Shown here: positions 3,693 through 22,966 of the stretch, piece after piece
Numbering within the stretch: the stretch's first letter is position 1
Layout of the letters: each line of letters begins with the position of its first letter
DNA from: a virus
Direction: 5' to 3' (one strand)
DNA length: 64,000 nt
IMG/VR virus record: IMGVR_UViG_3300033485_000001
Coordinates: 114,540-178,539 of that record
The notes under the pieces: model-generated
Told to the model about the DNA's origin: nothing
The model's database searches: none
The model's input: only the letters and a program-made list of their open reading frames with translations
Made by a program: the position numbers and the translations under genes

Positions 3693-5597
3693 ATGTTCGA
3701 TTTCGGCTACGGCGGCACCAGTCACTTCCAACCCACGCACACCTACGGTCGCGTGAGAGGGCAGGCGGTCACGCAGGGCGTGGCCTACCCGTCCCCGTTC
3801 TTCGATCTGGCGCACACCTACCTCCCGCCGACGGTCAAGCAGATGTTCAAGTGGTGCAGGTACTACTACCTCACCCAGCCGCTCATCGCTGCCGTCGTGA
3901 ACAAGATGGCGGAGTATCCGATCACGGACCTCGTGATCGACACGGACAACAAGGGTCTCCGCAACTTGTGGGAGAGGTTCTTCGAGGCGGACATCCAGCT
4001 CCGTCCGAGGTTGATCGACATCGGCCTGTACTACATGTGCTACGGCAACGCGCTCGCGTCGCTCATGCACCCGTTCGTGAAGTGGCTGAAGTGCAAGTAC
4101 TGCGGCCACTCGGTCATGGCGAAGAAGGCCATGTACAGGTTCCGCACCTACGAGTTCCACATGACCTGCGACAAGTGCAACCAGACAGGTCACGCTCTTG
4201 TGGAGGATCAGTACCTCCAGACCTCGGGAGGCACCCGCATCATCCTGTGGAACCCCGAAGACATCGACATCGTCTTCAACCCGATCACGCAAGAAACGAT
4301 GTACTTCTACAGCCTCCCCATCCAGACGCTCAACGACATGGCGGTGGGACGGCGGGAGGTCATCGAGCAGCTGCCGCAGGTCTTCATCGACGCTGCGAAG
4401 AAGCGCAAGTCGATCACGCTCAACAAGGACAACCTCTTCCACATCAAGAGGCCATCCGTCCTCTCGGGTCCAAGGGACACCGGCTGGGGTACCCCGCTGG
4501 TGCTCCCCGTCCTGAAGGACGTCTTCTACCTCCAGATCATGAAGAAGGCACAGGAGGCCATCCTCCTCGAGAGGATCGTGCCCCTGACCGTCATCTTCCC
4601 GCAGCAGGCGAGCGGGACCGCAGATCCGTACACGAGCGTCAACCTGATCGACTGGAAGGATCACATCGCGCAGGAGATTCAGAGGTGGAGGCTGGACAGG
4701 AACTACATCCCCATCCTGCCTCTCCCGATCGGGAATCAGGTCATCGGCGGCGACGGACGAGCTCTGCTCATGTCGCAGGAGATCAAGCTCTGGAGCGACC
4801 AGATCGTAGCTGGCATGGGGGTCCCCAACGAGTTCATCTACGGCGGCCTCCAGTGGTCCGGCTCGAACGTGTCGTTGAGGATGCTCGAGAACCAGTTCAT
4901 GAGGTATCTGTCCGGACTCCTCCTCTTCATCAAGGACTTCTTGATCAAGGGTATGGCCGCCCACATGGGGTGGCCCACCGTAGGAGTCAGGTTCAAGCCA
5001 TTCAAGATGGCTGATGATCTCCAGAGGAAGGCGTTCCTCTTCCAGCTCAACCAGGCCGGCAAGGTCAGCGACACGACGCTGATCAACGATGCCGACCTGA
5101 ACCCGGATGAGGAGAACGATCTCCTGCGGAAGGAGACGAAGGCCCGACTCGAATCGGTGAAGGCACAGCAGATCGCGGAAGCTGAGATCGCCGGCGAGGC
5201 TGGTATCGTCCAAGCCAAGTATCAGGCGAAGGCTCAGACGATCATGTCGCAGGAACAGCAACAGGCGGCTGCCGGATCTCAGGGCACTGCCCCTGGAGAA
5301 CCCAGCGAAGAGGTGGGGTCTCAGGCAACGCCACCTCCGGCTGGTGCTCAGCAGGGTCCGATGGGACAGCCTCAGCAGGATCCCATGCAGCAGATCGTTC
5401 AGCGCCTCCGGGCTCTGAGTCCGGAGGCCCAGCGTACCGTGCTAATGAGGATCGAGCAGAGCAACCCGGAGCTGGCGAACCAGCTTCGGGCGCAGTTCAA
5501 GGAGGGTGGTGGTGTCGATGCCTCGCCGAACTCGGCAGGCAAGCCGCTCCCAACCCAGCTACCCCCTCGTAGGGGAACCGAATCAGCGATGATCTAA
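3693..5597 (+). CDS. Portal protein with Zn-ribbon insertion and Q/P-rich C-terminal tail
   Basis: YYLTQPLIAAVVNKMAEYP, GWGTPLVLPVLKD...AQEAI and IVAGMGVPNEFIYGG segments resemble large-phage portals; CKYC...CDKC insert. Confidence 0.75.
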   Translation: MFDFGYGGTSHFQPTHTYGRVRGQAVTQGVAYPSPFFDLAHTYLPPTVKQMFKWCRYYYLTQPLIAAVVNKMAEYPITDLVIDTDNKGLRNLWERFFEADIQLRPRLIDIGLYYMCYGNALASLMHPFVKWLKCKYCGHSVMAKKAMYRFRTYEFHMTCDKCNQTGHALVEDQYLQTSGGTRIILWNPEDIDIVFNPITQETMYFYSLPIQTLNDMAVGRREVIEQLPQVFIDAAKKRKSITLNKDNLFHIKRPSVLSGPRDTGWGTPLVLPVLKDVFYLQIMKKAQEAILLERIVPLTVIFPQQASGTADPYTSVNLIDWKDHIAQEIQRWRLDRNYIPILPLPIGNQVIGGDGRALLMSQEIKLWSDQIVAGMGVPNEFIYGGLQWSGSNVSLRMLENQFMRYLSGLLLFIKDFLIKGMAAHMGWPTVGVRFKPFKMADDLQRKAFLFQLNQAGKVSDTTLINDADLNPDEENDLLRKETKARLESVKAQQIAEAEIAGEAGIVQAKYQAKAQTIMSQEQQQAAAGSQGTAPGEPSEEVGSQATPPPAGAQQGPMGQPQQDPMQQIVQRLRALSPEAQRTVLMRIEQSNPELANQLRAQFKEGGGVDASPNSAGKPLPTQLPPRRGTESAMI

Positions 5598-5640
5598 AAA
5601 GGGGAGGCGTCTCAGATGTTGAGACGCCTCCCTTCACTTT
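5596..5640. terminator. Probable bidirectional intrinsic terminator
   Basis: 13-bp perfect stem GGGAGGCGTCTCA (5602-5614)/TGAGACGCCTCCC (5620-5632). A-run on the left, T-rich on the right, between convergent genes. Confidence 0.8.
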
Positions 5641-5662
5641 CCACAGCCATCGACTCCGGACG

Positions 5663-5758
5663 CTACTCGTCGTCGTCGGAATCGATCAGCCACTCCTCCG
5701 TGCTTCCTGTGACCACTGCGACGTACGCAGACAGGAACGCCAGGAGGAAAAGTCTCAT
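5663..5758 (-). CDS. 31-aa peptide, hydrophobic N-half and acidic tail (MRLFLLAFLSAYVAVVTGSTEEWLIDSDDDE)
   Basis: Translated by hand; AAAGGAGG RBS just upstream; not in the ORF track because of its size. Confidence 0.65.
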   Translation of the reverse strand: MRLFLLAFLSAYVAVVTGSTEEWLIDSDDDE

Positions 5759-5792
5759 CCAACCTCCTTTCCGTCAGACGACACGGTACCCA

Positions 5793-5888
5793 TCAGTCGG
5801 CCTCGTAGTCGCCGAGGAGATCGTCCTCGACCTCCGACTCGAAGTCCGCGAGCTCGCTGTCCTCCACCACGTCTTCCGGATCCACCAT
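5793..5888 (-). CDS. 31-aa highly acidic peptide (MVDPEDVVEDSELADFESEVEDDLLGDYEAD)
   Basis: Translated by hand; AGGAGGT RBS; downstream of a TATAAGATCATTGA promoter. Confidence 0.7.
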   Translation of the reverse strand: MVDPEDVVEDSELADFESEVEDDLLGDYEAD

Positions 5889-5922
5889 GCACCTCCTGAG
5901 CTAGGGTAAGAGTTTTCCCTAC

Positions 5923-5960
5923 TCAATGATCTTATATCTGGGATCTTGTCGTCCTTGCAC
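5923..5960 (-). promoter_or_regulatory. TATAAGATCATTGA-type promoter
   Basis: The minus strand reads GATATAAGATCATTGA; the same core occurs at 48545 and 54319, with a variant at 24042. Confidence 0.65.
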
Positions 5961-5974: not shown

Positions 5975-6042
5975 GAATGAAGCTCATGTTGACCCCCTAG
6001 AGGACTGTGATCCTCGATGATCGGGGGTTGCGGAGGCAGCAA

Positions 6043-9000
6043 GTGGCGAGACTTGACCCGGCCGAGGGGTTCGAGATCCTCAAGAGTCATGTGAAGGACG
6101 CGATCTCCAGCTCGTTCCCACAGGAAGGAGCCAAGAACGTCCTCAAGCTCGAGAGCCTGGACATCCCCGACAAGCTGAGCGTCAGCAACGTCGGAGAGCA
6201 GAAGGCCGCCAAGATGAACGGGCGCACCTGGGGCGTTCCCGTTCACGCGACGCTGGTGCTCGAAGACAAGAAGACAGGCAAGGTCCTTGACCGAAGCAAG
6301 ATCAAGATCGCCACGCTGCCCAAGGTGACCAACCGCTACTCCTACATCGTGGAGGGGTCGGAGTACCAGGTCGACAACCAGTGGCGGCTCAAGCCGGGCG
6401 TCTACACGAAGGTCCAGCAGAACGGTGAGCTGGATTCCTTCTTCAACATTCAGGGGCAGCCGCTGCATCTCGGCTTCGACCCGAAGGAGCGGTCCTTCGT
6501 GATGAAGCACGGAGGAGCGCAGCCCCCGCTGTACCCGATCATGCGGGCTCTTGGTCACAGCGACGGTGACCTCGAGAAGGCGTGGGGCAAGGACATCCTC
6601 AACGCCAACATGACCGACAGCCGGGGGAAGGTGCTGAAGGTCGACAAGCACGCCATCGCCTTCGCGAAGCGCCTGGTGCCAGAGGAGGAGATCACAACCC
6701 TCGAGAAGGCGTCGGAGGTCATCAAGCAGAAGTTCGCCGAGTCGCGTCTGCACCCTGACGTAACGAGCCGCACGCTGGGCAAGGCCATCGACAAGATCAC
6801 ACCAGAGGCGATGCTGCGCTCGTCTCAGCGCCTTCTCGGCGTGGCTCGTGGGACCGAGAAGCCTGACGTCCGGGACTCACTCATGTTCAAGGAGTTCCTC
6901 AGCACCGAGGACTTCATTGGGGAGCGGATCAAGCAGAGCAGCCCGGTCATCCAGCGTCGCATCGGGAACAACATCGACAGGCGGGACAAGATCCGTGACA
7001 TCGTGGGCATGGATGTCTTCCAGCGACCCGTCAAGGAGTTCTTCTCCAAGGTGTCCCTGGCCTCGACCCCAGAGCAGACCAACCCCCTCAAGATGATCTC
7101 GGGTCAGCTTCGTACAACGATCGCTGGGGAGGGTGGCGTCAAGGACGCGAACAGGATCACAGAGGATGCGAAGCTGGTGGACCCAAGCCACTTCGGCGTT
7201 CTCGATCCACTGCACACACCGGAGAGCGTGAAGACCGGCGTGAACCTCCAGCTCGCCCTGGGGACCAGGAAGGTGGGGACTCGCGTAGAGATCCCGCTCA
7301 TCCACGCCAGGACCGGGAAGGTGACCTACCTGGATCCTGGGAAGATCAACGACGCCATGGTGGCGCTTCCCGATTCGGTGAAACGGGTGAACGGGAAGTT
7401 CTCTCCGAAGGAAGGATCCACGGTCCTGGTGAGCGGTCCTGGAAACGAGCTGATGCGCGTTCCCATGAAGGATGTCGAGTACGTCGTGCCGCGCTCGAGC
7501 CAGATGTTCTCGATCGCCACGAACATGGTCCCCTTCATCTCCAGCGATTCGCCGAACCGAGCAACCATGGCCGGCAGGCACATGGAGCAGGCCATCCCGC
7601 TCGTGAACCCAGAGGCCCCGCTGGTGCAGTCTGTCCTCGGCAAGAAGAGCTTCGACGAGCTCGTTGGTTCCTACGCCTCCCATGCGGCGCCGGCGGACGG
7701 GACCGTCCTGCGTGTCGAGAAGGACGCCATCCACATCAAGGGCTCCGACAAGAAGACCCACATCGTCCACACCTACGATCACTACCCGACCAACGACAAG
7801 AAGGGGATGATCCACAGCAACTCACTCGTGAAGGCCGGCGACAAGGTCACGAAGGGTCAGGTCGTAGCCGACACCAACTTCACCAAGAACGGCGTCTACG
7901 CCCCAGGCAAGAACCTCCAGGTCGCCTACATGCCGTGGCGGGGGTACAACTTCGAGGACGGCGTGGTGATCAGTGAGACTGCTGCGCAGAAGCTCACGAG
8001 CGAGCACCTCCACAAGAAGGGCCTGTCCACGAAGGAGGCGCAGCTTCTGGGGACGAAGAAGTACCAGGCGTACTACCAGGACCGTCTCAACAAGGAGCAG
8101 GCCGCCAAGCTGGATCCTGACGGAGTGGTCAAGCCTGGGATGAGGGTGAAGCCAGGAGACACGCTGATCGCAGCTCTGGCGGAGCAGCAGCTCACCACCG
8201 AGGAGCAGAAGCTGAAGCTCTTGCACAAGAGCTTGGTGAGGCCGTTCAAGGACAAGGCAATCACATGGGACGAGGACGTGGAGGGGGAGGTCATCGAGGT
8301 CAACAAGAGGGGGACCAGGGTCGACGTCCACGTCAAGACGGCGGAGCCGATGGACGTGGGGGACAAGCTGGTGGGTCGTCACGGAAACAAAGGAATCGTG
8401 ACGATGATCCTACCAGACCACGAGATGCCGAAGACGAAGGACGGGAAACCGATCGAGGTGATCATGAACCCCATCGGGACCCCCGGCCGTATGAACATTG
8501 GACAGGTCCTCGAGACGGCTGCCGCAAAGATCGCGCAGAAGACTGGTCAGCCCTTCAAGGTCACCAACTTCGAGGTGGAGAACAACCTCGAGTTCGTCGA
8601 GAACGAGCTCAAGAAGCACGGGCTGACCGACAAGGAATCGATCATCGATCCGAAGACGGGCAGGGAGATCCCGAACATCCAGGTTGGCCCGCAGTACATC
8701 CTGAAGATGGAACACCAGGTCGGGAAGAAGATGGCTGCCCGATCACGGGATTCTTACGACCGCAACCTGGTGCCGAAGGGTGGCGGTCCACACGGAGCTC
8801 AGGCCCTCGGCTCGCTCGGCATCTACTCCATGCTGGCCCACGGTGCCAAGGCCAACATCCGGGAGATGCAGACCTACAAGAGCGACAAGTCGCAGGGTGG
8901 TGACAACGACGAGCTCTGGAGTGCGCTCCAGGCTGGTGAGATGCTGCCCCCGCCCAGGACCACCTTCGCCTACAACAAGTTCAACTCCTACCTGAAGGCG

Positions 9001-12000
9001 CTCGGAGTGAACACTGAGAAGGACGGCAACAGCCTGAACCTCGTGCCGCTCACGGACAAGGACGTCCTCTCGATGTCCAACGGCGAGCTCAAGGACGCGG
9101 GCCGCGTCGTGAAGATGAGGACGCTCCAGCCGGAGAAGAACGGCCTCTTCGATCCGAAGATCACAGGCGGGCATGACGGGACCAACTGGTCCCACATCAA
9201 GCTCACCTCACCCATGCCGAACCCCCTGTTCGAGAAAGCCATCATGAGCGTGGCTGGGATCCGTGGTCCGCAGTTCGACAAGATCATAGGTGGCACGGCG
9301 GGTGTGACGAAGGACGGCGCCATCGTCGAGCAGACGGGTGTGAAGGGGGCGACCTACGGACCCGCAGCGATCGATCACTTGCTGGCGAAGGTGGACATCA
9401 AGAAGGACCTCGCGGTGGAGGAGGCACGGATCCAAGGGCTCAAGGGCCAGCTTCAGAACGAGTCGAGGCGCAAGATCAAGTACCTCCGTGCGTTGGACAA
9501 GCTGGGCATGAAGCCGACTGACGCCTACATGATGAAGCACGTTCCGATCCTGCCTCCGAACATGCGGCCCATCGCCGTGCTCGATGACGGGAGCCTCCAG
9601 ACCGATGACCTGAACGAGATCTACAAGCAGCTCGCGATCGTCAACAAGAAGCACGGCGAGTTTCCGGCCAACGCGCCGCAGTCGCTCAAGGCCCCGCTCC
9701 AGGAGGACATCTACGATCACCTGAAGTCCCTCACTGGGCTCGGTGGCACCCTCAACAGGAAGCACCCTGGCATCCTCGACGTCCTCTCAGGACGTGAGGG
9801 ACCGAAGACCAGCTTCGCACAGGACGTTCTGATCAAGCGCAAGCAGGACCTCACCATGAGGTCCACCATCGTCCCGGAGCCGTCCCTCTCGCTGGACGAG
9901 GCGGAGATCCCGAGGAAGGCTGCGAAGGAGATGTACAAGCCCTTCCTGGTCCGGGAGCTGCGCCGCACAGCCGGAGTCACCCCGCTTGCCGCCAAGAAGA
10001 TGATCGACGAGGACGACCCGCTCGCGAACAAGGCGCTGGATCGTGTGGTTCAGGAGCGCCCTGTGCTGCTGAAGCGCGACCCGGTCCTCCACAAGTACGG
10101 CATCCAGGCGTTCAAGCCACGGCTCGTCGAGGGGAAGGCCATCAAGATCCACCCCCTCGTGTGCTCCGGCTTCAACGCCGACTTCGATGGCGACACCATG
10201 AGCGCCTACGTTCCGATCACGGCGGAGGCCGTGAAGGAGGCGGAGCAGATGTTCCCCTCGCGGAACCTCTTCTCCCCGGCCACTGGATCCGTCATGTACA
10301 CCCCCGGCCACGAAGCGCAGGTCGGCCTGTTCATGATGGCCGACGCTGGGAAGTGGACTGGTCAGCGGTTCAAGAGTCAGGCCGAGCTCGAGAGCGCGGT
10401 GAGAGCCGGGAAGGCGACTCAGAACGACGTGGTCATGGTGGGGAACGTCAAGACCACGCTCGGGAGATTGCAGATCAACAGCCACCTCCCAAAGGATCTC
10501 CAGGGAGGGAAACTCCTCACCGATCTGAACTACAGGTTCACGAAGAAGGAACAGGAGAAGCTCTTCAACGGCATGGTCAAGGTCGACCGCGCCGCGTATC
10601 CGTCTTCGATCAACAAGCTGAAGGACCTCGGGAACGAGGCAGCCACGATGGGCAGCTTCAGCTTCGGCCTCGGAGACTTCAAGGTCCACAAGGACATCCG
10701 TGATCCAATCCTGCGAAGCGCGGAGGCAAAGGCGGCCAAGCTGGACCTGTCCAAGAAGGATCAGCTCAACAAGTTCATCGACATCTACGAGGGCGCGACC
10801 AACGAGATCGATGAGAAGCTGAAGCAGCGCATCGCCGACCCCAAGTTCCAGACCAACCTCGTCAAGCTCGAGGTGGCAGCTGGGATCAAGGGAAGGGGTC
10901 TGCGGCAGCTCACGGCAGCCCCAGTTCTCTTCGTAGACGGCAAGGGCGAGGTGGTCACCAGCCCCGTGAAGAAGTCCTACGCAGAGGGCCTCTCGTCAGG
11001 GGACTACTGGGCGGCGACCAGCGGCGGCAGGAAGGGTGCGATCCAGAAGGTCCAGTCGGTCAGTGAGCCGGGCTACCTGACGAAGCAGATGGCCAACAGC
11101 ACCCTCGACATGCTCGTGGCCGCCAACGACTGCGGCACCAGCCGAGGCGTGAACCTGCACGTGGACGAGCCTGATGTGATCGGCAGGTACACCGTCGCGG
11201 ACCTGAAGCTCCAGAAGGGAATCATCCCGGCGAACACCCTCGTCACGCCGGAGATCCTGAGCCGTATCAAGAACGCCAAGATCGACAAGGTCGTGGTCCG
11301 ATCTCCGATGCGCTGTGTCCACGGTAAGGGTGTCTGTGCGAAGTGCATGGGGCTCAACGAGAACGGGAAGCTCAACGATCTGGGAACCAACGTGGGCATC
11401 CTGGCCACCCAGTCCATCGGCGAGCGCGGCACGCAGCTTGCCATGAAGGCGTTCCACTCAGGCGGCGTCTACGAGGGCAGGGAAGCAGCCACGAAGTCCA
11501 TTGCAGCGGGTGGCCTCGACCGAGCCGGCAACATCCTGAACCTCCCGCAGAAGCTCAAGGGATCAGCGATCCTCTCGACCACTGTCGGTCGGGTGAACAA
11601 GATCGAGAAGGATCCCGCCGGCGGTGTTCGAGTCTCCATCGGGGACAAGGAGCACTACGTCCCCGCCGACCGAGCGATGCTCGACAAGGTTCGCGTGGGG
11701 TACCAGGTCAAGAAGGGCGATCCGATTACCAACGGCCCCGTCAACCCACACGAGCTGCTCCCGCTCACCAACATGAGCAAGGTGCAGGGTCACCTGGCGG
11801 GGGAACTCCATTCCATCTACGGGCAGTACGGCATCAAGCGGAGGCACTCCGAGCTCATGGTGCGGGCGCTCTCGAACGTGACCAAGGTCGAGAACCCCGG
11901 CGGCAACCCAGACCTCCTGCCCGGAGACTTCACGAGCACGAGTCAGGTCTACGAGTGGAACAAGCAGAACCCGAAGACCAAGCCCGTGGTTCACACCCCA

Positions 12001-12204
12001 GTTCTGCGCGGTGTGAAGACGATCCCCCTCGACATCCAAGAGGACTGGATGGCTCGATTGAACCACGAGCACTTGAAGAGTACGCTTGTGGAGGCGGCAC
12101 AGCAGGGATGGCAAAGCAACCTCCACGGCATGCACCCGATCCCGCCCCTCATGCATGGGGCCGAGTTCGGAAAGGGTACCAAGGACAAGCCCTGGGCCTA
12201 CTGA
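6043..12204 (+). CDS. rpoBC: Fused beta/beta-prime multisubunit (two-barrel) DNA-directed RNA polymerase
   Basis: Colinear beta motifs (EQTNPL, DPSHFG, YMPWRGYNFEDG, GDKLVGRHGNKG, NPIGTPGRMNIGQ) then beta-prime motifs (LPPNMRP, FNADFDGD at 10171-10194, GGRKG...GYLTK, QSIGERGTQL). Likely start is GTG 6043 (GGAGG at 6032); the ORF is open from 6007. Confidence 0.95.
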   Translation: MARLDPAEGFEILKSHVKDAISSSFPQEGAKNVLKLESLDIPDKLSVSNVGEQKAAKMNGRTWGVPVHATLVLEDKKTGKVLDRSKIKIATLPKVTNRYSYIVEGSEYQVDNQWRLKPGVYTKVQQNGELDSFFNIQGQPLHLGFDPKERSFVMKHGGAQPPLYPIMRALGHSDGDLEKAWGKDILNANMTDSRGKVLKVDKHAIAFAKRLVPEEEITTLEKASEVIKQKFAESRLHPDVTSRTLGKAIDKITPEAMLRSSQRLLGVARGTEKPDVRDSLMFKEFLSTEDFIGERIKQSSPVIQRRIGNNIDRRDKIRDIVGMDVFQRPVKEFFSKVSLASTPEQTNPLKMISGQLRTTIAGEGGVKDANRITEDAKLVDPSHFGVLDPLHTPESVKTGVNLQLALGTRKVGTRVEIPLIHARTGKVTYLDPGKINDAMVALPDSVKRVNGKFSPKEGSTVLVSGPGNELMRVPMKDVEYVVPRSSQMFSIATNMVPFISSDSPNRATMAGRHMEQAIPLVNPEAPLVQSVLGKKSFDELVGSYASHAAPADGTVLRVEKDAIHIKGSDKKTHIVHTYDHYPTNDKKGMIHSNSLVKAGDKVTKGQVVADTNFTKNGVYAPGKNLQVAYMPWRGYNFEDGVVISETAAQKLTSEHLHKKGLSTKEAQLLGTKKYQAYYQDRLNKEQAAKLDPDGVVKPGMRVKPGDTLIAALAEQQLTTEEQKLKLLHKSLVRPFKDKAITWDEDVEGEVIEVNKRGTRVDVHVKTAEPMDVGDKLVGRHGNKGIVTMILPDHEMPKTKDGKPIEVIMNPIGTPGRMNIGQVLETAAAKIAQKTGQPFKVTNFEVENNLEFVENELKKHGLTDKESIIDPKTGREIPNIQVGPQYILKMEHQVGKKMAARSRDSYDRNLVPKGGGPHGAQALGSLGIYSMLAHGAKANIREMQTYKSDKSQGGDNDELWSALQAGEMLPPPRTTFAYNKFNSYLKALGVNTEKDGNSLNLVPLTDKDVLSMSNGELKDAGRVVKMRTLQPEKNGLFDPKITGGHDGTNWSHIKLTSPMPNPLFEKAIMSVAGIRGPQFDKIIGGTAGVTKDGAIVEQTGVKGATYGPAAIDHLLAKVDIKKDLAVEEARIQGLKGQLQNESRRKIKYLRALDKLGMKPTDAYMMKHVPILPPNMRPIAVLDDGSLQTDDLNEIYKQLAIVNKKHGEFPANAPQSLKAPLQEDIYDHLKSLTGLGGTLNRKHPGILDVLSGREGPKTSFAQDVLIKRKQDLTMRSTIVPEPSLSLDEAEIPRKAAKEMYKPFLVRELRRTAGVTPLAAKKMIDEDDPLANKALDRVVQERPVLLKRDPVLHKYGIQAFKPRLVEGKAIKIHPLVCSGFNADFDGDTMSAYVPITAEAVKEAEQMFPSRNLFSPATGSVMYTPGHEAQVGLFMMADAGKWTGQRFKSQAELESAVRAGKATQNDVVMVGNVKTTLGRLQINSHLPKDLQGGKLLTDLNYRFTKKEQEKLFNGMVKVDRAAYPSSINKLKDLGNEAATMGSFSFGLGDFKVHKDIRDPILRSAEAKAAKLDLSKKDQLNKFIDIYEGATNEIDEKLKQRIADPKFQTNLVKLEVAAGIKGRGLRQLTAAPVLFVDGKGEVVTSPVKKSYAEGLSSGDYWAATSGGRKGAIQKVQSVSEPGYLTKQMANSTLDMLVAANDCGTSRGVNLHVDEPDVIGRYTVADLKLQKGIIPANTLVTPEILSRIKNAKIDKVVVRSPMRCVHGKGVCAKCMGLNENGKLNDLGTNVGILATQSIGERGTQLAMKAFHSGGVYEGREAATKSIAAGGLDRAGNILNLPQKLKGSAILSTTVGRVNKIEKDPAGGVRVSIGDKEHYVPADRAMLDKVRVGYQVKKGDPITNGPVNPHELLPLTNMSKVQGHLAGELHSIYGQYGIKRRHSELMVRALSNVTKVENPGGNPDLLPGDFTSTSQVYEWNKQNPKTKPVVHTPVLRGVKTIPLDIQEDWMARLNHEHLKSTLVEAAQQGWQSNLHGMHPIPPLMHGAEFGKGTKDKPWAY

Positions 12205-12213
12205 GGTAAGATC

Positions 12214-12600
12214 ATGATGAGCGAGATCGACGAGGTCAGGTACGGTGCCTTCTTTGACGAGCTGGGTCAGATCGAGAAGGCGGGCATCCTCACGAAGTTC
12301 GCGGCTGGGCCTGGGTTCTTCGGCCAGCTCTGGCGGGGCGGAAAGCAGCTGCTCACCCAACCGACCCACGCCATCAAGGGGATTCAGAAGGCATACGGTC
12401 GGGGCTCGCTGCTCCAGGAAGCTACTGGAGGGGGCAGGCTTCGGCAGTTCGGCGGTGGCCTCAAGGAGGTGTGGAAGACACCGCAGGGCAAGGCCGCCAT
12501 CGTCGGAGGTCTCGGAGTCGCCGGCGGTCTGACTGGGGCCGGGTACATGGCCGGCAGAGGCGGCGGTGGCCAGCAGAGCCAGAACGTCTACGTGAGGTAG
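12214..12600 (+). CDS. Small protein with FFDELGQIEKAG tag and C-terminal glycine-zipper helix
   Basis: Tag motif at residues 11-24; AAIVGGLGVAGGLTGAGYMAG. Confidence 0.75.
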   Translation: MMSEIDEVRYGAFFDELGQIEKAGILTKFAAGPGFFGQLWRGGKQLLTQPTHAIKGIQKAYGRGSLLQEATGGGRLRQFGGGLKEVWKTPQGKAAIVGGLGVAGGLTGAGYMAGRGGGGQQSQNVYVR

Positions 12601-12603
12601 CGC

Positions 12604-13797
12604 GTGGCGCGATCACATCGCAACTCGATGGTCCAGCGGGGCGTGAACCCCGTACTGATCGAAGATGGCCGGATCATCAACGTCGACATGGCCCACTGGA
12701 CCGTCGACGTCAGAACCATGCACTCGCAACGGCAGCTCCTCGACATGCAGGTCGGAGCGCCCTACCTGCACTTCACGGCAGGCGAGGGCATCTACGCGAT
12801 GCCCGAGGTTGGCGCCAAGGTCAAGACGTGCAGCCCCAGCGACGGATCACCGTTCATCCTCTGCTTCATCACAGCCTTCGAGCGCGAGGGACAGCCTGCG
12901 TCCGACGAGGGACAGACCACGACACGTCCCACGACGGAGACCTCGAGCGAGGAGGGCGACGCCCCGTCCGAGGTGACGTTCCGTGCTGGCCGCCCGAAGC
13001 TCCAGCAGGGCGACATCATGATGCGCTGCCGAGACGGGAACCAGATCTGGCTCCATCGTGGCGGCGTCGTCGAGATCGGAGCTACCTGGATCGCCAAGCG
13101 TTACTACATCCCGCTCCTCAACACGGTCCGGGACATCGCCGAGAATTGGGAGGCGCTGACCATCGCTGGAGACATGATGTGGCACGTCGAGCGCGCCGAC
13201 TCGAGTCAGTCCAGCGAGTCACGTCAGGACGAGGCGACCTTCACCCTCATGGCGAAGAACTTCGCCCAGGATCAGTACGCCACCATCCTCGTCCGCGCTG
13301 GTCACGTCGATGACACAGGGCGGTTCAGAATGATCGTGGCCCCCAACCTCATCGACACCAGGACCGGGGAGGTTCGCGGTGAGGCGGTCTACACGATGGA
13401 CATCGATGAGGAGGGCAACGTCGACATCACCGTGAAGAAGGATGTCACGATCACCATCGAGGGCGAGCTGTCCCAGACCGTCAACGGAGACGCCGACTAC
13501 GTTTACGGGTCGAATCGGACGATAAGCGTGGCTGGCAACTCCGAGGAGACCGTCACCGGCAGCCACAGGTTCGAGGCAGCCAGCAGCGAGGAGAGGGTCG
13601 ACGGAACCAAGACGATCGCGTCTCCGTCGATCAAGCTGGGCAGCTCGGGTGCTCCGTACAAGGTTCTCCTTGGGACCCCGGCGGCGCTCGCGTTCTTCGC
13701 TGGCCACAAGCACACCGTGATCGGCAGCGAGACTTCCATCCCGGTGACTCCGGTGTTTCCCAATCAGGTCTCTGCTCGAAAGGTGTTTGGTGAGTGA
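12604..13797 (+). CDS. Baseplate central spike (gp5/gpV/VgrG-like)
   Basis: N-terminal OB-fold-like GRIINVD...TVDV; C-terminal beta-helix-like repeats (DVTITIEGELSQTVNG...); terminal HKH motif. Confidence 0.75.
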   Translation: MARSHRNSMVQRGVNPVLIEDGRIINVDMAHWTVDVRTMHSQRQLLDMQVGAPYLHFTAGEGIYAMPEVGAKVKTCSPSDGSPFILCFITAFEREGQPASDEGQTTTRPTTETSSEEGDAPSEVTFRAGRPKLQQGDIMMRCRDGNQIWLHRGGVVEIGATWIAKRYYIPLLNTVRDIAENWEALTIAGDMMWHVERADSSQSSESRQDEATFTLMAKNFAQDQYATILVRAGHVDDTGRFRMIVAPNLIDTRTGEVRGEAVYTMDIDEEGNVDITVKKDVTITIEGELSQTVNGDADYVYGSNRTISVAGNSEETVTGSHRFEAASSEERVDGTKTIASPSIKLGSSGAPYKVLLGTPAALAFFAGHKHTVIGSETSIPVTPVFPNQVSARKVFGE

Positions 13798-14084
13798 TCG
13801 TGTCGCTGAGTGCTACCAGATTGGAGCAGCGCATCATCAGCATCTTCCGGGTGACCGCCCGTTCGCTGTATCCTGATGTAGTGAAGAGCGTGTCCGTCCG
13901 CCAGGTCCCGAAGAGCGACGGGACCGTCGATGTGGAGCTGACGGAACACCGAGGTCCGCTCGAGGTGGATGAGAGGTACATGATTCCACTGGCTAGGGCG
14001 ATTGCTCAGGCCGTGGTAGAAGAGATCAAGTCAGGGGCCGAGGTGGAGGACACCGTGGCACTCCAGACCTGGAGGATCAAATGA
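13794..14084 (+). CDS. Hypothetical protein
   Basis: ORF overlaps both neighbours by 4 nt (translational coupling). Confidence 0.6.
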   Translation: MIVSLSATRLEQRIISIFRVTARSLYPDVVKSVSVRQVPKSDGTVDVELTEHRGPLEVDERYMIPLARAIAQAVVEEIKSGAEVEDTVALQTWRIK

Positions 14085-16150
14085 GCGACGTTCCGCTGTT
14101 CTTCGAGGTGAAGACGCCGACCATCGAGAAGACTGCCTTCGAGGCCAAGCTCTCCGAGAACGCCGACACCTGGCCGAGGGAGGTGCTCGACGAGCTGCTG
14201 AAGCAGCATCCCTACATGGGCATCTACGACGTCAGCCCGATCATGACCGAGGTGAACGGCGATCGGGGGATCGGCATCGGCTTCTTCCAGGTGAGCAACA
14301 CCTCTGCCACCGCCGCCCTCGGTCCGGGCGGTGAGGCGCTGCGTGCCATGCAGGGCGTCAAGACCGTCCGCATCCCGATCATCATCAAGGACACCAAGCT
14401 GTCCCCCCTCGACGTGATGATGCAGTCGGACGGCAAGGCGTTTCCGCTCAACGAGCGGAGGATGCGTGAGGCCCTGCATCGCCCGCAGCTCTTCGACGCG
14501 GTGAAGAAGTCCCCCGGCGATCAGTCGCTGGTGGAGAGCCTCTACCCACCGACCGCCCGTCAGCGCGGCATCCAGGCTGGTCAGGTCGTGGATGCTCCGC
14601 AGATGAAGATCGGCTCGGCCAAGTCGGAGCTGCTCCTTCAGGCCATCGCCCCCTCGGTGCTTCAGGGCGACCTCGACAAGGTGGCCTCCGCGCTGGAGAG
14701 CGACGAGGACCTCACGAGGGCGCTGGTCCACAACCCCTACACCAGGGAGGCCCTTCGGTTCATCGGCACCCTCGAGGCCACGACCGCAGAGGACGTCGCC
14801 AAGGTGGCATCCAAGATCTCCAGGCCCGACATCATCCAGGTCAGCCGGGACGGCGAGGTCTACCACCTGAAGATGGCGAACAGCCAGGACTTCAGCCCGG
14901 AGGTCGTCGAGGCGGATCGTCCCACCATGGTGGACCTCGCCGGCGAGGACCTCGTGCGGAAGGCGGACAAGGACGGCGCCGTCACCGTCAGCACCGACCC
15001 CGTCGTCCGGGACACGCTGGAGGACGAGGTGGCCGAGGTGGTGACCCGCTTCGGCGAGTACCGCGTCAAGACCTCGGACGGCAAGGAGCTCATGGGCTGG
15101 GTCTTCCCGACTGTGCTGGACTTCGATGGGACCGCGCTCCCCATGCAGCTCTTCACGAACGGGAGCAACTCCGCCGTTCAGCCGCAGATCGCAGGCAGCC
15201 TGGTCGGCAAGAGCTCGAACATCATCCGGGGCAAGCCCGAGGGCTACGGCTTCTTCTACCGGGTCACGGCGAGCGGCAGCGTCCTCGCCTTCCTGCCGGT
15301 GGAGGTCAAGTCGAAGTTCGCGGAGTCGGGTGGCGAGGGCTACCTGGTCCGGACCATGATGGGTGGGGCCGCGCGAATCATGTTCGCGCCCGGAAGCCGG
15401 GAGATCATCAAGACCGGACCCGAGGAGTTCACGCTGCCTGCCGACGTGCGGTGGGCTCCGCTCGGCGATGCGGTCCCGCTCATGGAGGATCCAGGCCAGT
15501 TCGCCAAGGTGGCCTACCTGAAGGACATCCACAACGTGGTCAAGATCGTCTCGGACAGGTCCACCTGGTCCTTCAAGAGCGGCCCCGGTCTCAACAAGGT
15601 GGCCTACCAGTGGCGCGAGGGACTGAGCGGCGAGAACGCCATGTTCATGGCCTGCACCTTCGGCATGGATCCGGGGACGGCCGCCAGGGCGCTCGTGAAG
15701 GCGGCCAAGGCCGGCTACTCCGAGGTGAAGGGCTGCCGCGAGATCCACATCCACCAGGAGAAGCTGGCCTCCGCTCGGCAGGAAGCAGCGCAGCTGATGC
15801 GCGAGGTGCCGAAGAAGCACCTGCTCCTCAAGGAGGCGGCCGGGCTCGACGACATGACCACCGTGGATCACATCCTCTCCCTGGGCTTCCTCAACCCAGA
15901 GAACCTCCGCACCTTCGTCAACTACCTCCCCGACCTGGACGAGACGGTGAGCAAGCTCGCCGAGCTGCTCGTGGCGGCGAGGACGGGCATGAAGGACGTG
16001 CCGGAGGACAGCATCAAGAGCGCGATGGAGCGCCTGGATGAGGTGATCATCGGTCTGAAGGAGCTGCTGCATCGGGAGTCCATCAGCAAGACCAGTGCGG
16101 CCAGGCGTGACGCCTTGACCGAGAAGCTCCTCGGTATGGCCGGGGGATGA
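14081..16150 (+). CDS. Large hypothetical head-associated protein with many K-x-A motifs
   Basis: EKTAF, DKVAS, AKVAS, AKVAY, EKLAS, LKEAA; strong GC3 bias. Confidence 0.75.
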   Translation: MSDVPLFFEVKTPTIEKTAFEAKLSENADTWPREVLDELLKQHPYMGIYDVSPIMTEVNGDRGIGIGFFQVSNTSATAALGPGGEALRAMQGVKTVRIPIIIKDTKLSPLDVMMQSDGKAFPLNERRMREALHRPQLFDAVKKSPGDQSLVESLYPPTARQRGIQAGQVVDAPQMKIGSAKSELLLQAIAPSVLQGDLDKVASALESDEDLTRALVHNPYTREALRFIGTLEATTAEDVAKVASKISRPDIIQVSRDGEVYHLKMANSQDFSPEVVEADRPTMVDLAGEDLVRKADKDGAVTVSTDPVVRDTLEDEVAEVVTRFGEYRVKTSDGKELMGWVFPTVLDFDGTALPMQLFTNGSNSAVQPQIAGSLVGKSSNIIRGKPEGYGFFYRVTASGSVLAFLPVEVKSKFAESGGEGYLVRTMMGGAARIMFAPGSREIIKTGPEEFTLPADVRWAPLGDAVPLMEDPGQFAKVAYLKDIHNVVKIVSDRSTWSFKSGPGLNKVAYQWREGLSGENAMFMACTFGMDPGTAARALVKAAKAGYSEVKGCREIHIHQEKLASARQEAAQLMREVPKKHLLLKEAAGLDDMTTVDHILSLGFLNPENLRTFVNYLPDLDETVSKLAELLVAARTGMKDVPEDSIKSAMERLDEVIIGLKELLHRESISKTSAARRDALTEKLLGMAGG

Positions 16151-16153
16151 TGC

Positions 16154-17032
16154 GTGATCTCCCACCCAGCCATCTTCTGGGCCAAGTTCTACCTCTCTCG
16201 TAGATCGCACACATACGACGGGGTGGCCCAGCTTCTCTCCGTCATCGGGCTGGCAGGGCTCAACACCCCCGAGCTCGAGCAGATCGACAAGGCGATGAAC
16301 TACCCGACGCCGTTCACGCCGAAGAACCTTCGGGATCGCCCAAGCCAGACCTTCTTGAGGTACGAGCGGATCTATGATGCCTGGCATCAGGGTGAGGACA
16401 TGCGCAAGGCGTTGGCCGTCCTGAACACGGCCAAGCTGCGAGATCTGGTGGAGACCTACATCCTGTCACCGATCAAGCCGGAGCAGGCTGTTAGGAAGAT
16501 CAATCGACTGTTCCCCGAAGCCAACCTCACGGTGAGGGCCTACGACCTCTTCCAGCACTTCTTCTGGAATCGTGAGGGGATGGGCGGCTCGGAGTGGGGC
16601 AAGTTCGTAGGTGATCGTGATGCGTCGAACAAGGAATGGCTTCAGCTTGCGGTAGATGTGCGGGGGCCTGGTGGAGTCCAGGCCCTCTTGTGGAAGACGA
16701 ACACGGGACCCCTGAAAGGCATCGAGGCGAACAAGGCGTTCACGGACGTCCGCAACATCGCGTACATGTGCATCCAACAGATCGGGATGCAGACCCCGTC
16801 CAAGTACCACTCGGAGATGATGCTCAACTACGCCAGGGCGATGAAGCTGGCACAGGAAGGGATCGACGCGAGCTCCGATGCGGTGCGGGATGTGGTGCAG
16901 GCATTCGGCTCCTTCAAGATGCGACACGCCGAGTTGACCACACCGTCGGTGCAGCAGTTGACGGGCGGCAACTTCTCCGAGGCCGAGGGAGGTTCCGATA
17001 CGGAAGGAGTGCTGGACTATGGGGATGTTTGA
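16154..17032 (+). CDS. Hypothetical alpha-helical protein
   Basis: 292-aa ORF in the operon; no recognised motif. Confidence 0.7.
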   Translation: MISHPAIFWAKFYLSRRSHTYDGVAQLLSVIGLAGLNTPELEQIDKAMNYPTPFTPKNLRDRPSQTFLRYERIYDAWHQGEDMRKALAVLNTAKLRDLVETYILSPIKPEQAVRKINRLFPEANLTVRAYDLFQHFFWNREGMGGSEWGKFVGDRDASNKEWLQLAVDVRGPGGVQALLWKTNTGPLKGIEANKAFTDVRNIAYMCIQQIGMQTPSKYHSEMMLNYARAMKLAQEGIDASSDAVRDVVQAFGSFKMRHAELTTPSVQQLTGGNFSEAEGGSDTEGVLDYGDV

Positions 17033-20200: not shown

Positions 20201-21050
20201 CGTCCTCCTCGCTGTCCTCGTCCTTGTCGGAGAGCCAGAACCGCTCGAGCAGCGTTCGGGCGCGATCGTCCGACACCAGAGCGATCGCCTTCTCGGGGTG
20301 CTCCCCGTCCCGCAGGTCGATGCCGTCCTGCCAGCCGGGCTTGCCCTCGAAGCCGGACAGCTTGATGGTGTCGTTGGCTGCCCTCTTCAGGAGCGCGATG
20401 GGAAGACCAGTTGGCCCTCTCCGGACCGGGGCCATCTTGTAGTTCCCAGGAAGCTCCTCGATGAGCGTGCGCTGCTCCTTGGTCGTGTCGCACCCGTCCG
20501 CCACTCCCTTGAGCGGGGTGTGGCTCTTCTTGCCGCTCGGGTCGCCGGCGAAGAAGCACGGCTCCCACTCGGACCACTCTCGCCCGTTGGGCGGCAGCAG
20601 ACCGAACATGGCCAGGTCGCGCCTCGTGTTGAGGATCATACCGTAGCCGACGGTCTCCACCACGATCTCCTTCTGCGAGCGAGTCCTGATCTTCACCTTC
20701 GGCCCCTTGAGGAGGCCGTTGTAGACCATGAGGAGGTCGAGCCGCAGCTTGACCTTGACGCCCTCGACGATCTTCATCCAGGACACACCTTGGGTCTTGA
20801 TCATCTCCTTGAACATGTTGTCCGCCATGGCCACGTGCGTCATGCGGGTCATGGCCAGCTTGGATCCCAGGGCACCACCCTCGGTCCTGGCCCGCTTGAG
20901 GATCTCGTGGAGACGCTTCCCGCCGTACATCCGCAGCATGCGATGCGCCTCCTTGTCGGAGAAGCCCATGTCGACCGCTTTCGCGATCAGCTTCTCCTCC
21001 TTCTTGTCCTCCTTCTTGGGGGCGACCGATCCCTCTTCCACCGATGCCAT
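20169..21050 (-). CDS. Hypothetical protein with acidic C-terminal tail
   Basis: AGGAGGT RBS; upstream TATAAG promoter core. Confidence 0.75.
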   Translation of the reverse strand: MASVEEGSVAPKKEDKKEEKLIAKAVDMGFSDKEAHRMLRMYGGKRLHEILKRARTEGGALGSKLAMTRMTHVAMADNMFKEMIKTQGVSWMKIVEGVKVKLRLDLLMVYNGLLKGPKVKIRTRSQKEIVVETVGYGMILNTRRDLAMFGLLPPNGREWSEWEPCFFAGDPSGKKSHTPLKGVADGCDTTKEQRTLIEELPGNYKMAPVRRGPTGLPIALLKRAANDTIKLSGFEGKPGWQDGIDLRDGEHPEKAIALVSDDRARTLLERFWLSDKDEDSEEDDDEGGDIWDD

Positions 21051-21089
21051 CTTGCACCTCCTCCCTAACTAGGGAAACAGATCACTGCC

Positions 21090-21105
21090 ACATGAACCTT
21101 ATAGC
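21090..21105 (-). promoter_or_regulatory. TATAAG-core promoter
   Basis: The minus strand reads GCTATAAGGTTCATG, about 45 nt upstream of the 21050 start. Confidence 0.5.
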
Positions 21106-21107
21106 GG

Positions 21108-21136
21108 TTGGCTTGATCGATTTGTGGTGGTACTTT
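21108..21136 (+). promoter_or_regulatory. Sigma70-like promoter upstream of terminase
   Basis: TTGGCT-17 nt-TACTTT with an extended -10 TG. Confidence 0.4.
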
Positions 21137-21145
21137 CAGAGGCAG

Positions 21146-22966
21146 ATGCAAGCCGAACCTGTCAGTGACTACAGGGACTTCTACGTTGACGCCAAGCGAG
21201 CCGTAGATGCGGGAGTCTTCGATCAGAGCGTCGAGGATGGCATCGATGACTGGATGGCAAGGCTCAACGAGGAGGACGAGGAGATCGAGGCGATCCTTGC
21301 TGAAGAGGATGTGACGGACGGGACGTTCAAGCGCCCGCAGATGGAGATCCTCCCCTCCGAGTTCACCGAGTTCGCGATCAGAATTCCGGTGGCTGGAGAC
21401 CTCGAGCCCTTCAGCTTCGCGACCAGGCGCTACCTCAAGCCGGTCTACGACACGCCGGCGAGGAGGACGCTGCTCAAGTGCGCCCGGCAGACCGAGAAGA
21501 GCACATCGCTGGGCAACAAGAGCTTGGCGTACTGCGGGATCAACTACGGCTTCAAGGTCCTCTACGTCAGCGCCACGGCGACTCAGGCCCAGGTCTTCAG
21601 CGTCGACCGCATCAAGGAGCCGCTCGACATCTCCCCCGAGATGCGGTTCCTCATCGACACCCGGCTCAACCAGAACGTCCTCTTCAAGCAGTTCAAGAAC
21701 CGCTCGCAGATCAGAATCAGGTACGCCTTCCTGAACGCCGACCGGACGCGCGGCATCCCGGCGGACATGATCCTGATCGATGAGTTCCAGGACATCCTCT
21801 TCGCCAACGTCCCAGTCATCGAGCAGTGCGCCTCCCACTCCTACTGGAAGCTCTACTGCTACTCGGGCACGCCCAAGAGCTTGGACAACTCGATCGAGGT
21901 CTACTGGTCGAACTACTCCACCCAGAACGAGTGGATGGTCCCATGCGAGAGGCACGGTCACCCCGGCAAGCCGCACTCCTGGTTCTGGAACAACCTCGGC
22001 ATCAAGAACATCGGGAAGAAGGGATTGATCTGCGCCAAGTGTGGACAGTCCATCGATCCAACGCATCCCAGCGCGAGCTGGGCCTCACGACAACCAGTCA
22101 CCGAGGACAACGCCCACCGTGTCACCTTCGAGGGCTACCGCATCTCCCAGCTGATGGTCCCGTGGATCAGCTGGCAAGACGACGTCATCATGGCGCTCGA
22201 GCGGTACGGCACCGCCAAGTTCTACAACGAGGTGCTCGGCCTCTCCTACGACTCCGGTGTTCGCCCGCTCACCAGGACCCAGGTTCAGTCCTGTTGCCAG
22301 AACAGGATCAGGTTCGGTGATGTGATCGAGAACGCGCAGAAGTGCCACGGAGGTGTCTTCGTCGGCATCGACTGGGGCACTGGAGAGCAGGCGTCCTACA
22401 CCGTCGTCGCCCTCGGCGGGTACATGGGCAACGAGTTCCAGATCTTCTACGTTCACAGGTTCACGGGTGAGGACCTCGAGCCGCAGCGGCAGCTTCAGAT
22501 GATCGCGAAACTCCTGGTCGCCGTGAACTTCAAGATCATCGGAGCAGACTACGGCGGCGGCTTCGACAGGAACGACTTCCTCCAGAGGAACTTCGGAACC
22601 CTGCGCCTGGCCAAGTACCAGTACGCTGGATCTCCCAAGGCGAAGGTGAAGTGGCAGCCCAAGCTCGGCCGCTTCATCCTCCACCGCACCGAGATCATGA
22701 GCGACATCTTCAACGCGCTCAAGTACAAGAAGATCTACCTCCCCAACTGGGAGGAGTTCGCAACCCCGCACGGGGACGACATGCTCAACATCTTCAGCGA
22801 GTACAACGATCAGCTCAACATGATCCAGTACAAGCTGAGTCCTGGGAAGAGCGACGACACCTTCCACGCCGTCCTCTATTGCTTCCTGGTCTCCATGCTC
22901 ATGAAGCCCAGGCCCGACATCATCATCCCGCTTCACGCCGGACACGTGGACTTCAACCGGCGCTGA
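21146..22966 (+). CDS. terL: Terminase large subunit (lambda gpA-like)
   Basis: Walker A-like KCARQTEKST, Walker B RGIPADMILIDEFQD, nuclease VGIDWG and DDTFH, Zn ribbon CERH...CAKC. Likely start is ATG 21146; the ORF is open from 21044. Confidence 0.88.
   Translation: MQAEPVSDYRDFYVDAKRAVDAGVFDQSVEDGIDDWMARLNEEDEEIEAILAEEDVTDGTFKRPQMEILPSEFTEFAIRIPVAGDLEPFSFATRRYLKPVYDTPARRTLLKCARQTEKSTSLGNKSLAYCGINYGFKVLYVSATATQAQVFSVDRIKEPLDISPEMRFLIDTRLNQNVLFKQFKNRSQIRIRYAFLNADRTRGIPADMILIDEFQDILFANVPVIEQCASHSYWKLYCYSGTPKSLDNSIEVYWSNYSTQNEWMVPCERHGHPGKPHSWFWNNLGIKNIGKKGLICAKCGQSIDPTHPSASWASRQPVTEDNAHRVTFEGYRISQLMVPWISWQDDVIMALERYGTAKFYNEVLGLSYDSGVRPLTRTQVQSCCQNRIRFGDVIENAQKCHGGVFVGIDWGTGEQASYTVVALGGYMGNEFQIFYVHRFTGEDLEPQRQLQMIAKLLVAVNFKIIGADYGGGFDRNDFLQRNFGTLRLAKYQYAGSPKAKVKWQPKLGRFILHRTEIMSDIFNALKYKKIYLPNWEEFATPHGDDMLNIFSEYNDQLNMIQYKLSPGKSDDTFHAVLYCFLVSMLMKPRPDIIIPLHAGHVDFNRR

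Follow-up and report, generated by a model that had tools for sequence, protein, structure and literature searches.

A fused and trimmed beta-beta' RNA polymerase, accompanied by a sigma factor, in an Arash-like phage lineage

Can a phage encode beta and beta', the two large chains of bacterial-type RNA polymerase (RNAP), as a single polypeptide, and if so, with which partners and at what point of the infection might such an enzyme act? The question is raised by one long gene at positions 6043-12204 of a 64-kb stretch of viral DNA, here called the window, which is the last 64 kb of the single 178,539-bp IMG/VR virus record IMGVR_UViG_3300033485_000001 (CheckV completeness 100%). An earlier note on this DNA had read the gene as a single-chain beta/beta' RNAP lying inside the virion gene module. 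Our analysis confirms that positions 6043-12204 encode beta and beta' of a bacterial-type RNAP as one trimmed chain.

Open reading frame (ORF) analysis of the window found the frame uninterrupted from 6007 to 12204 on the plus strand. Within it, the RNAP gene starts with GTG at 6043, has a GGAGG ribosome site 6 nucleotides 5' of that codon, and comprises 2,053 codons and a stop; this start is consistent with the database gene call (2,053 amino acids, aa) and with the N-termini of the family. Pfam domains occur in the order Rpb2_3, Rpb2_6, then Rpb1_1, Rpb1_2 and Rpb1_5, in agreement with the previously claimed single frame of about 2050 aa in which beta is followed by beta'. The codon-position GC of the ORF is like that of the phage's other genes.

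When the protein was aligned with 15 relatives and with Escherichia coli beta plus beta', 2,012 of its 2,053 residues found a counterpart in the E. coli subunits, at 28.6% identity. The beta C-terminus joins the beta' N-terminus directly between residues 996 and 997, with no linker. The beta-like half (residues 1-996) is thus encoded at 6043-9030 and the beta'-like half (residues 997-2053) at 9031-12201, which places the junction at nucleotide ~9030, inside the interval 9020-9050 estimated earlier. At 696 aa less than E. coli beta plus beta', the chain is also as short as had been estimated (about 700 aa less). The same alignment revealed no added domain, and phage-specific insertions, if any, stay below 12 aa.

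The reduction is spread over both halves. The beta half is without E. coli beta residues 1-37, beta-i4 (220-357), beta-i9 (945-1049) and parts of beta-i11. From the beta' half, four stretches of E. coli beta' are gone: residues 12-29, residues 68-99 with the Zn finger, residues 951-1195 with SI3 and some of the jaw, and residues 1363-1406 of the C-tail, around which omega wraps in bacteria. Where the N-terminal Zn-binding domain of beta' would stand, there is a short loop (9157-9204), as the earlier note had seen; it reads TGGxDG in all family members examined. Three related RNAPs carry an insert of 240-460 aa precisely at this deletion point.

Much of the enzyme's core has been kept. The catalytic NADFDGD motif (10174-10194) is invariant in the family, the lysines of beta GDK..GNKG and the beta NFED motif are conserved, the second beta' Zn site (11119-11358) has all four of its cysteines, and the bridge helix and trigger loop are retained. 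In place of the near-universal beta motif GGQRFGEME, the whole family has HGAQALGSL (region 8764-8898). Therefore, contrary to the note, not all catalytic landmarks are present; NADFDGD, GDK..GNKG, NFED and the second Zn site stand, and GGQRFGEME is lost. The rifampicin pocket has been remodelled (E. coli H526 to G, S531 to T, Q513 to S/N, and I572 to N/T), so insensitivity to rifampicin is predicted. Both elements that bind sigma in bacteria were correctly recognised as kept: the beta flap-tip helix region (8170-8253; sigma region 4) and the beta' clamp helices (9580-9738; sigma region 2), the latter with 8 residues fewer than their E. coli counterparts.

The fusion is widespread and free of artefact. 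All of the best 120 clusters listed (46-100% identity) are fused, with lengths of ~2,030-2,080 aa or more where inteins are present, and the contigs that bear them reach 200 kb. End-to-end matches to the RNAP, residues ~10-2060, were found at 58 of 67 IMG/VR loci, the other nine matches being truncated, several of them by the end of a contig. With a 401-aa query that bridges the junction, 884 representatives of 50%-identity clusters matched at E<=1e-30, a very large family; among the 150 best of these matches, almost all pass through the junction without a break. A stop or frameshift at the junction, which the note had named as a refuting case, is thus countered by hundreds of independent fused relatives.

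Interruptions of other kinds do occur in the family. Inteins or homing-endonuclease inserts are present in 43 of 119 related RNAPs, at no fewer than 10 sites. These sites centre on catalytic motifs, with clusters at the trigger loop, beta' NADFDGD and beta GNKG, and the window RNAP is intein-free. The RNAPs of Salmonella phage Arash and of Vibrio phage D69 are split secondarily near residue 1480, and that of contig L114 is in at least three pieces, and even in these relatives the beta/beta' junction stays fused. On L114, a gene for an IS605 OrfB / Cas12f-like TnpB (13921-16370) adjoins a Gp3-like gene.

In an IQ-TREE quick tree of 22 rows, the five bacteria, drawn from four phyla, group together with support 100. 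The fused family forms, with Arash and D69, a clade of its own (support 100), ~2.3 substitutions per site from the bacteria; within it, the sister group of the fully fused members consists of Arash and D69. This separation excludes a recent capture from a host, and the phylogenetic check proposed in the note accordingly argues against host contamination: the RNAP is not nested in the sampled bacteria. The deep placement of the clade is not given because archaeal sequences and those of the mReC group discussed below are absent from the tree. The RNAP of Cobetia phage Carin-5 cannot be placed, its separate branch being very long.

Does the phage supply a partner for this core? That no sigma, alpha or omega is recognisable had been stated for the window, where it holds; genome-wide it does not hold for sigma. 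The search of the whole genome that the note had called for found no alpha by Pfam and did find a 257-aa sigma70-family factor at genome positions 65529-66302, 55 kb upstream of the RNAP gene and outside the window. This ORF scores 37.9 bits with Pfam Sigma70_r3 (cut-off 25.3) and matches RpoS and RpoD in the PDB; a profile of 17 sequences finds sigma factors in the PDB at E 1e-14, among them compact sigmas that align along the full length. The top 50 Foldseek matches listed for its AF2 model (pLDDT 79.7) are all sigma factors, and comparison of both sequence and model identifies sigma2, sigma3 and sigma4, as befits a sigma70-family factor. The gene is a genuine sigma70-family factor, although the Sigma70_r2 model has no match anywhere in the genome. 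Two further sigma region-4 matches, at genome position 7798 and at window position ~24750, were below cut-off and represent generic helix-turn-helix motifs.

Occurrence ties this sigma to the fused enzyme. Of the 21 related records, 19 have an orthologue, as do 12 of the 13 whose completeness is 90% or more. Within the phage collection it was confined to the four phages with this RNAP, besides two weak partial matches outside phages. The sigma is therefore the predicted cognate partner of the fused core, and the core has kept its flap tip and clamp because the phage encodes its own sigma70-family factor. The N-terminus of the sigma bears a leader, F-x-D/E-E-L..K-x-A/G, that is common to several small proteins of the virion block (window positions ~17978, 18424, 38539, 38745 and 39022); there are nine copies, compared with none in the reversed sequence and 10 codon-shuffled controls. 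A similar leader is found on most sigma orthologues of the fused clade. We rejected a candidate capsid leader on the RNAP itself, whose N-terminus is the usual N-terminal helix of the beta subunit, with no strict motif match.

Pfam searches for alpha (PF01000, PF01193) and omega (PF01192) found neither in this genome nor in the 21 relatives, and the same scan was positive in 14 of 14 cellular control genomes. A Pfam scan of the whole genome likewise revealed no second beta/beta' set. There was no match to a T7-type RNAP either, which is uninformative as the control for that scan was positive in no genome. Since the Sigma70_r2 model missed a genuine sigma, a divergent alpha or omega could escape Pfam too. 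The minimal cellular-type RNAP postulated before thus takes shape as a conserved, size-reduced single-chain enzyme encoded inside the virion gene block; it may be independent of alpha, and host alpha could be recruited nevertheless.

The genes around the RNAP point to the virion. On its 5' side is a portal-like gene (3693-5597, plus strand), a homologue of Arash gp204; of the 69 related loci, at least 28 have such a gene ahead of the RNAP. On the 3' side, a gene at 12604-13797 on the plus strand encodes a T4 gp5-type central tail spike with beta-helix repeats (Gp5_C above cut-off, PDB matches to the gp5 beta-helix), and a spike of this type comes after the RNAP in 58 of the 69 loci. The location within a virion gene module is thereby upheld and is conserved in relatives. 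Between RNAP and spike, 10 nucleotides after the RNAP stop, lies a 128-aa ORF (12214-12600, plus strand) that is conserved in close relatives only and has no match in the strict leader-motif search. The large terminase, TerL, is encoded 9 kb downstream of the RNAP (21044-22966, plus strand); a PHROGs scan of 20 neighbouring proteins returned TerL, one spike match and nothing else.

Particles of a relative provide further evidence, the one bench result on record. In the Arash particle proteome, the RNAP chain Gp206 is the most-detected protein (3,516 spectra) and outranks the major capsid protein, while its second chain Gp216 gave 1,210 spectra and the sigma Gp10 gave 467 (PMC10585845). The Arash sigma gene, too, is found among structural genes.

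Candidate promoters recur in the window phage. The heptamer TGGTATA has 11 copies in the genome, 10 of them intergenic where 1.3 are expected, and is part of an extended -10-like promoter, TGGTATAAGATC, that often stands right after GC-rich hairpins ending in TCTTAG. A second promoter-like class has a TATAAGATC core and heads minus-strand units. No strong plus-strand copy of the TGGTATA promoter exists inside the virion block. The exact promoter is present in some relatives, one of which (G001) has six perfect copies. We discarded a weak TGGTAnnnT form found 35-41 nucleotides 5' of both the RNAP frame and the sigma operon, as it is not enriched (five in gaps, 2.6 expected).

From the genome we infer a course of events that covers catalytic activity, late expression, packaging, ejection, the promoters read and independence of host alpha. 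The fused beta-beta' core and the phage sigma would form a two-polypeptide holoenzyme, alpha and omega not being phage-encoded. The RNAP gene would be expressed late, along with the portal and tail-spike genes, and RNAP and sigma would be packed into the capsid. Delivered with the DNA, the enzyme would start phage transcription independently of the host polymerase, reading the extended -10-type promoters of the genome (TGGTATAAGATC class). A late-made, sigma-dependent single-chain polymerase that is probably delivered by the virion is, on balance, the account that we favour, with confidence somewhat above even.

Several observations weigh against this account. The phage is uncultured and known here from its genome alone, one near-universal beta motif is replaced, and Pfam scans can overlook divergent subunits, as Sigma70_r2 overlooked the sigma. 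The strict leader motif is absent from the RNAP. The Arash preparation was purified by sucrose only and contained 116 proteins, including ribonucleotide reductases and helicases, and the Arash authors themselves allow for carry-over (PMC10585845). A folded protein of 230 kDa is too large for the tail channel, so that ejection would require unfolding, as is assumed for N4. Furthermore, one RNAP with one sigma leaves transcription of the late genes unexplained; neither Arash nor the Vibrio phages have the exact promoter form, and the class is close enough to a generic sigma70 extended -10 element that a host holoenzyme could read it.

A question separate from packaging is whether the chain depends on host alpha. 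It would then be a hybrid enzyme that, once made or ejected, recruits an alpha dimer of the host and perhaps its omega as well; this is a serious contender, although we rate it below an even chance. Ninety-eight percent of the chain aligns to bacterial beta plus beta', with no new domain to replace alpha, and both engineered and natural bacterial beta-beta' fusions still use alpha. Nor could host alpha have been detected in the Arash particles, because the mass spectra were searched against phage proteins only. However, RNAPs of the phiKZ and AR9 type function without alpha and bind no host subunits (PMC13282480), covalent fusion takes over the main role of alpha in assembly, and the stretch of beta' that omega would wrap, the C-tail, is gone. 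An interface for host alpha would also be harder to keep at ~28% identity to bacteria and across hosts of several phyla.

The opposite extreme strikes us as rather improbable in its full form: a fused chain that is self-sufficient with its sigma, uses no alpha or omega of phage or host, is loaded into the capsid via a cleavable capsid-targeting leader on the sigma and, once ejected, runs an early programme that needs no host polymerase and is insensitive to rifampicin. If true, this would be the smallest known sigma-dependent cellular-type RNAP, and it would exist in hundreds of phage lineages. An enzyme working without alpha and omega would offer structural and synthetic biology a minimal two-protein model of sigma-dependent transcription, and a natural test of the need for alpha, omega and the beta' Zn finger.

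We regard as unlikely, to a slightly greater degree, that the polymerase is never packaged, core and sigma acting in the infected cell only, for instance on middle or late genes after expression by the host RNAP. The Arash signal would then be carry-over in a permissive preparation, whose 116 proteins include metabolic enzymes, and the RNAP is without the leader borne by the other presumed cargo, the sigma included. Immediately 5' of the RNAP gene there is a weak sigma70-like element, preceded by a hairpin at which portal transcripts may terminate; therefore, the RNAP may be a separate transcription unit. Carin-5, moreover, has its sigma-beta-beta' operon in a replication context. Against all this, the position between portal and tail spike is deeply conserved, the RNAP tops the Arash spectra above the major capsid protein, the Arash sigma gene is among structural genes, and in the window phage the leader on the sigma is common to virion-block proteins.

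Finally, an artefact or a recent capture, whether an rpoB-rpoC pair fused by misassembly, one that hides a frameshift, or host sequence within a phage contig, has a negligible probability: we found no point in its favour, and it is refuted by hundreds of independent fused relatives, by a clade outside bacteria with support 100, and by codon-position GC that matches the phage's other genes.

How does the virion-delivered, sigma-dependent polymerase that we favour compare with known systems? Natural in-frame rpoB-rpoC fusions exist in Helicobacter and Wolbachia and are possible because beta ends close to where beta' begins. Those fusions are full-size, work with alpha and omega and fall within bacterial clades, whereas the window RNAP is trimmed and lies outside the sampled bacteria. 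Relative to the canonical alpha2-beta-beta'-omega core, the window phage encodes no alpha or omega detectable by Pfam. Like the window enzyme, the RNAPs of phiKZ and AR9 are phage two-barrel enzymes related to bacterial beta/beta' that lack alpha and omega, and one set of them is packaged and injected for early transcription. They consist, however, of 4-5 polypeptides in two sets and use gp68 or gp226, which are not sigma70 proteins, in contrast to one chain, one set and a sigma here. The virion RNAPs of N4 (T7-like) and of crAss-like phages (gp66, a single-chain two-barrel enzyme) resemble the window RNAP as large single chains encoded among structural genes and are delivered with the DNA, but they are unrelated to, or barely recognisable against, cellular beta/beta' and have no sigma.

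Among known systems, the note had named bacterial-type RNAPs of uncultured Caudoviricetes. Arash, whose RNAP and sigma occur in particle preparations, is a closer precedent than the published set of RNAP-encoding Caudovirales, mReC. mReC and the window phage are both tailed phages whose beta/beta' are recognised by cellular profiles and branch outside cellular clades. In the portion of the published material available to us, the mReC entries are separate beta and beta' genes of ~900-1,560 aa, with two sets in some genomes (Weinheimer & Aylward 2020, PMC7481178), unlike the single fused gene of the window; the paper is silent on fusion, sigma and virions. We also tried to assign the window phage to mReC by contig name, and rejected this, there being no fused entry in that portion of the supplement table. 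Carin-5 is a likely cultured example of the mReC type, with separate sigma, beta and beta' genes. In its genome (PV155638), the operon of sigma, beta (1,083 aa) and beta' (927 aa) adjoins genes for a topoisomerase and a dCMP deaminase.

The window RNAP belongs to the Arash-like lineage of phage RNAPs, which is very large and has hardly been studied, its nearest relatives being those of Arash (Gp206 plus Gp216, with sigma Gp10) and Vibrio phages D69, D148 and D181, at 31-34% identity. These phages share with it the portal-then-RNAP order, an orthologous sigma and the fused beta/beta' junction. They differ in that beta' is split again near residue 1480, the second gene lying 0.6-5 kb away, and in that their sigma has no N-terminal leader. 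The Arash paper lists beta, beta' and sigma subunits and leaves fusion, trimming and the lack of alpha unremarked (PMC10585845). According to the literature, large phages with an RNAP of their own have it in fragmented form and lack sigma, and those that encode a sigma lack an RNAP and supply the sigma to the host enzyme (Iyer et al. 2021; 2026 review PMC13282480). The window lineage bridges these two groups, having both its own sigma and its own trimmed one-chain core. In full-text literature searches, no phage RNAP was found described as both fused and sigma-dependent; what is new is thus the single-chain, sigma-plus-core, alpha-less design of an Arash-like phage RNAP, undescribed in print. 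Since cultured members such as Arash and the Vibrio phages exist, the questions raised here are testable at the bench.

There are two hints of hosts, both weak, from binning into metagenome-assembled genomes (MAGs): Desulfatibacillum and Myxococcota. The 174-kb contig CAZNAX010000001.1, which encodes an RNAP 86% identical to that of the window, was binned in a MAG labelled Desulfatibacillum, which may be a clue to the host or a binning artefact.

Some features of the non-coding sequence deserve mention. Both promoter-like classes share the TATAAGATC core; examples of these signals lie at genome positions 17708, 33069, 35899, 38306, 45333 and 53798 and at window positions ~5928 and ~24046. The GC-rich hairpins end in TCTTAG and not in a long T run, and may be a phage-specific form of terminator. 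In E. coli, the beta' Zn finger modulates termination; terminators of the TCTTAG type could be related to the absence of this finger from the phage enzyme.

The gap between portal and RNAP contains a minus-strand cassette (5602-5937). A plus-strand ORF of 97 aa across it (5616-5909) was rejected, as its ATG lies within a hairpin, it fails the filter on GC content at third codon positions (GC3), and it has no homologue in the 69 loci. The cassette consists of a TATAAGATC promoter-like element, two micro-ORFs of ~31 aa and a terminator hairpin of 13 bp (-31 kcal/mol, z -5.6). Both micro-ORFs have good ribosome sites; one product is acidic, and the other has a hydrophobic N-terminus and an acidic tail.

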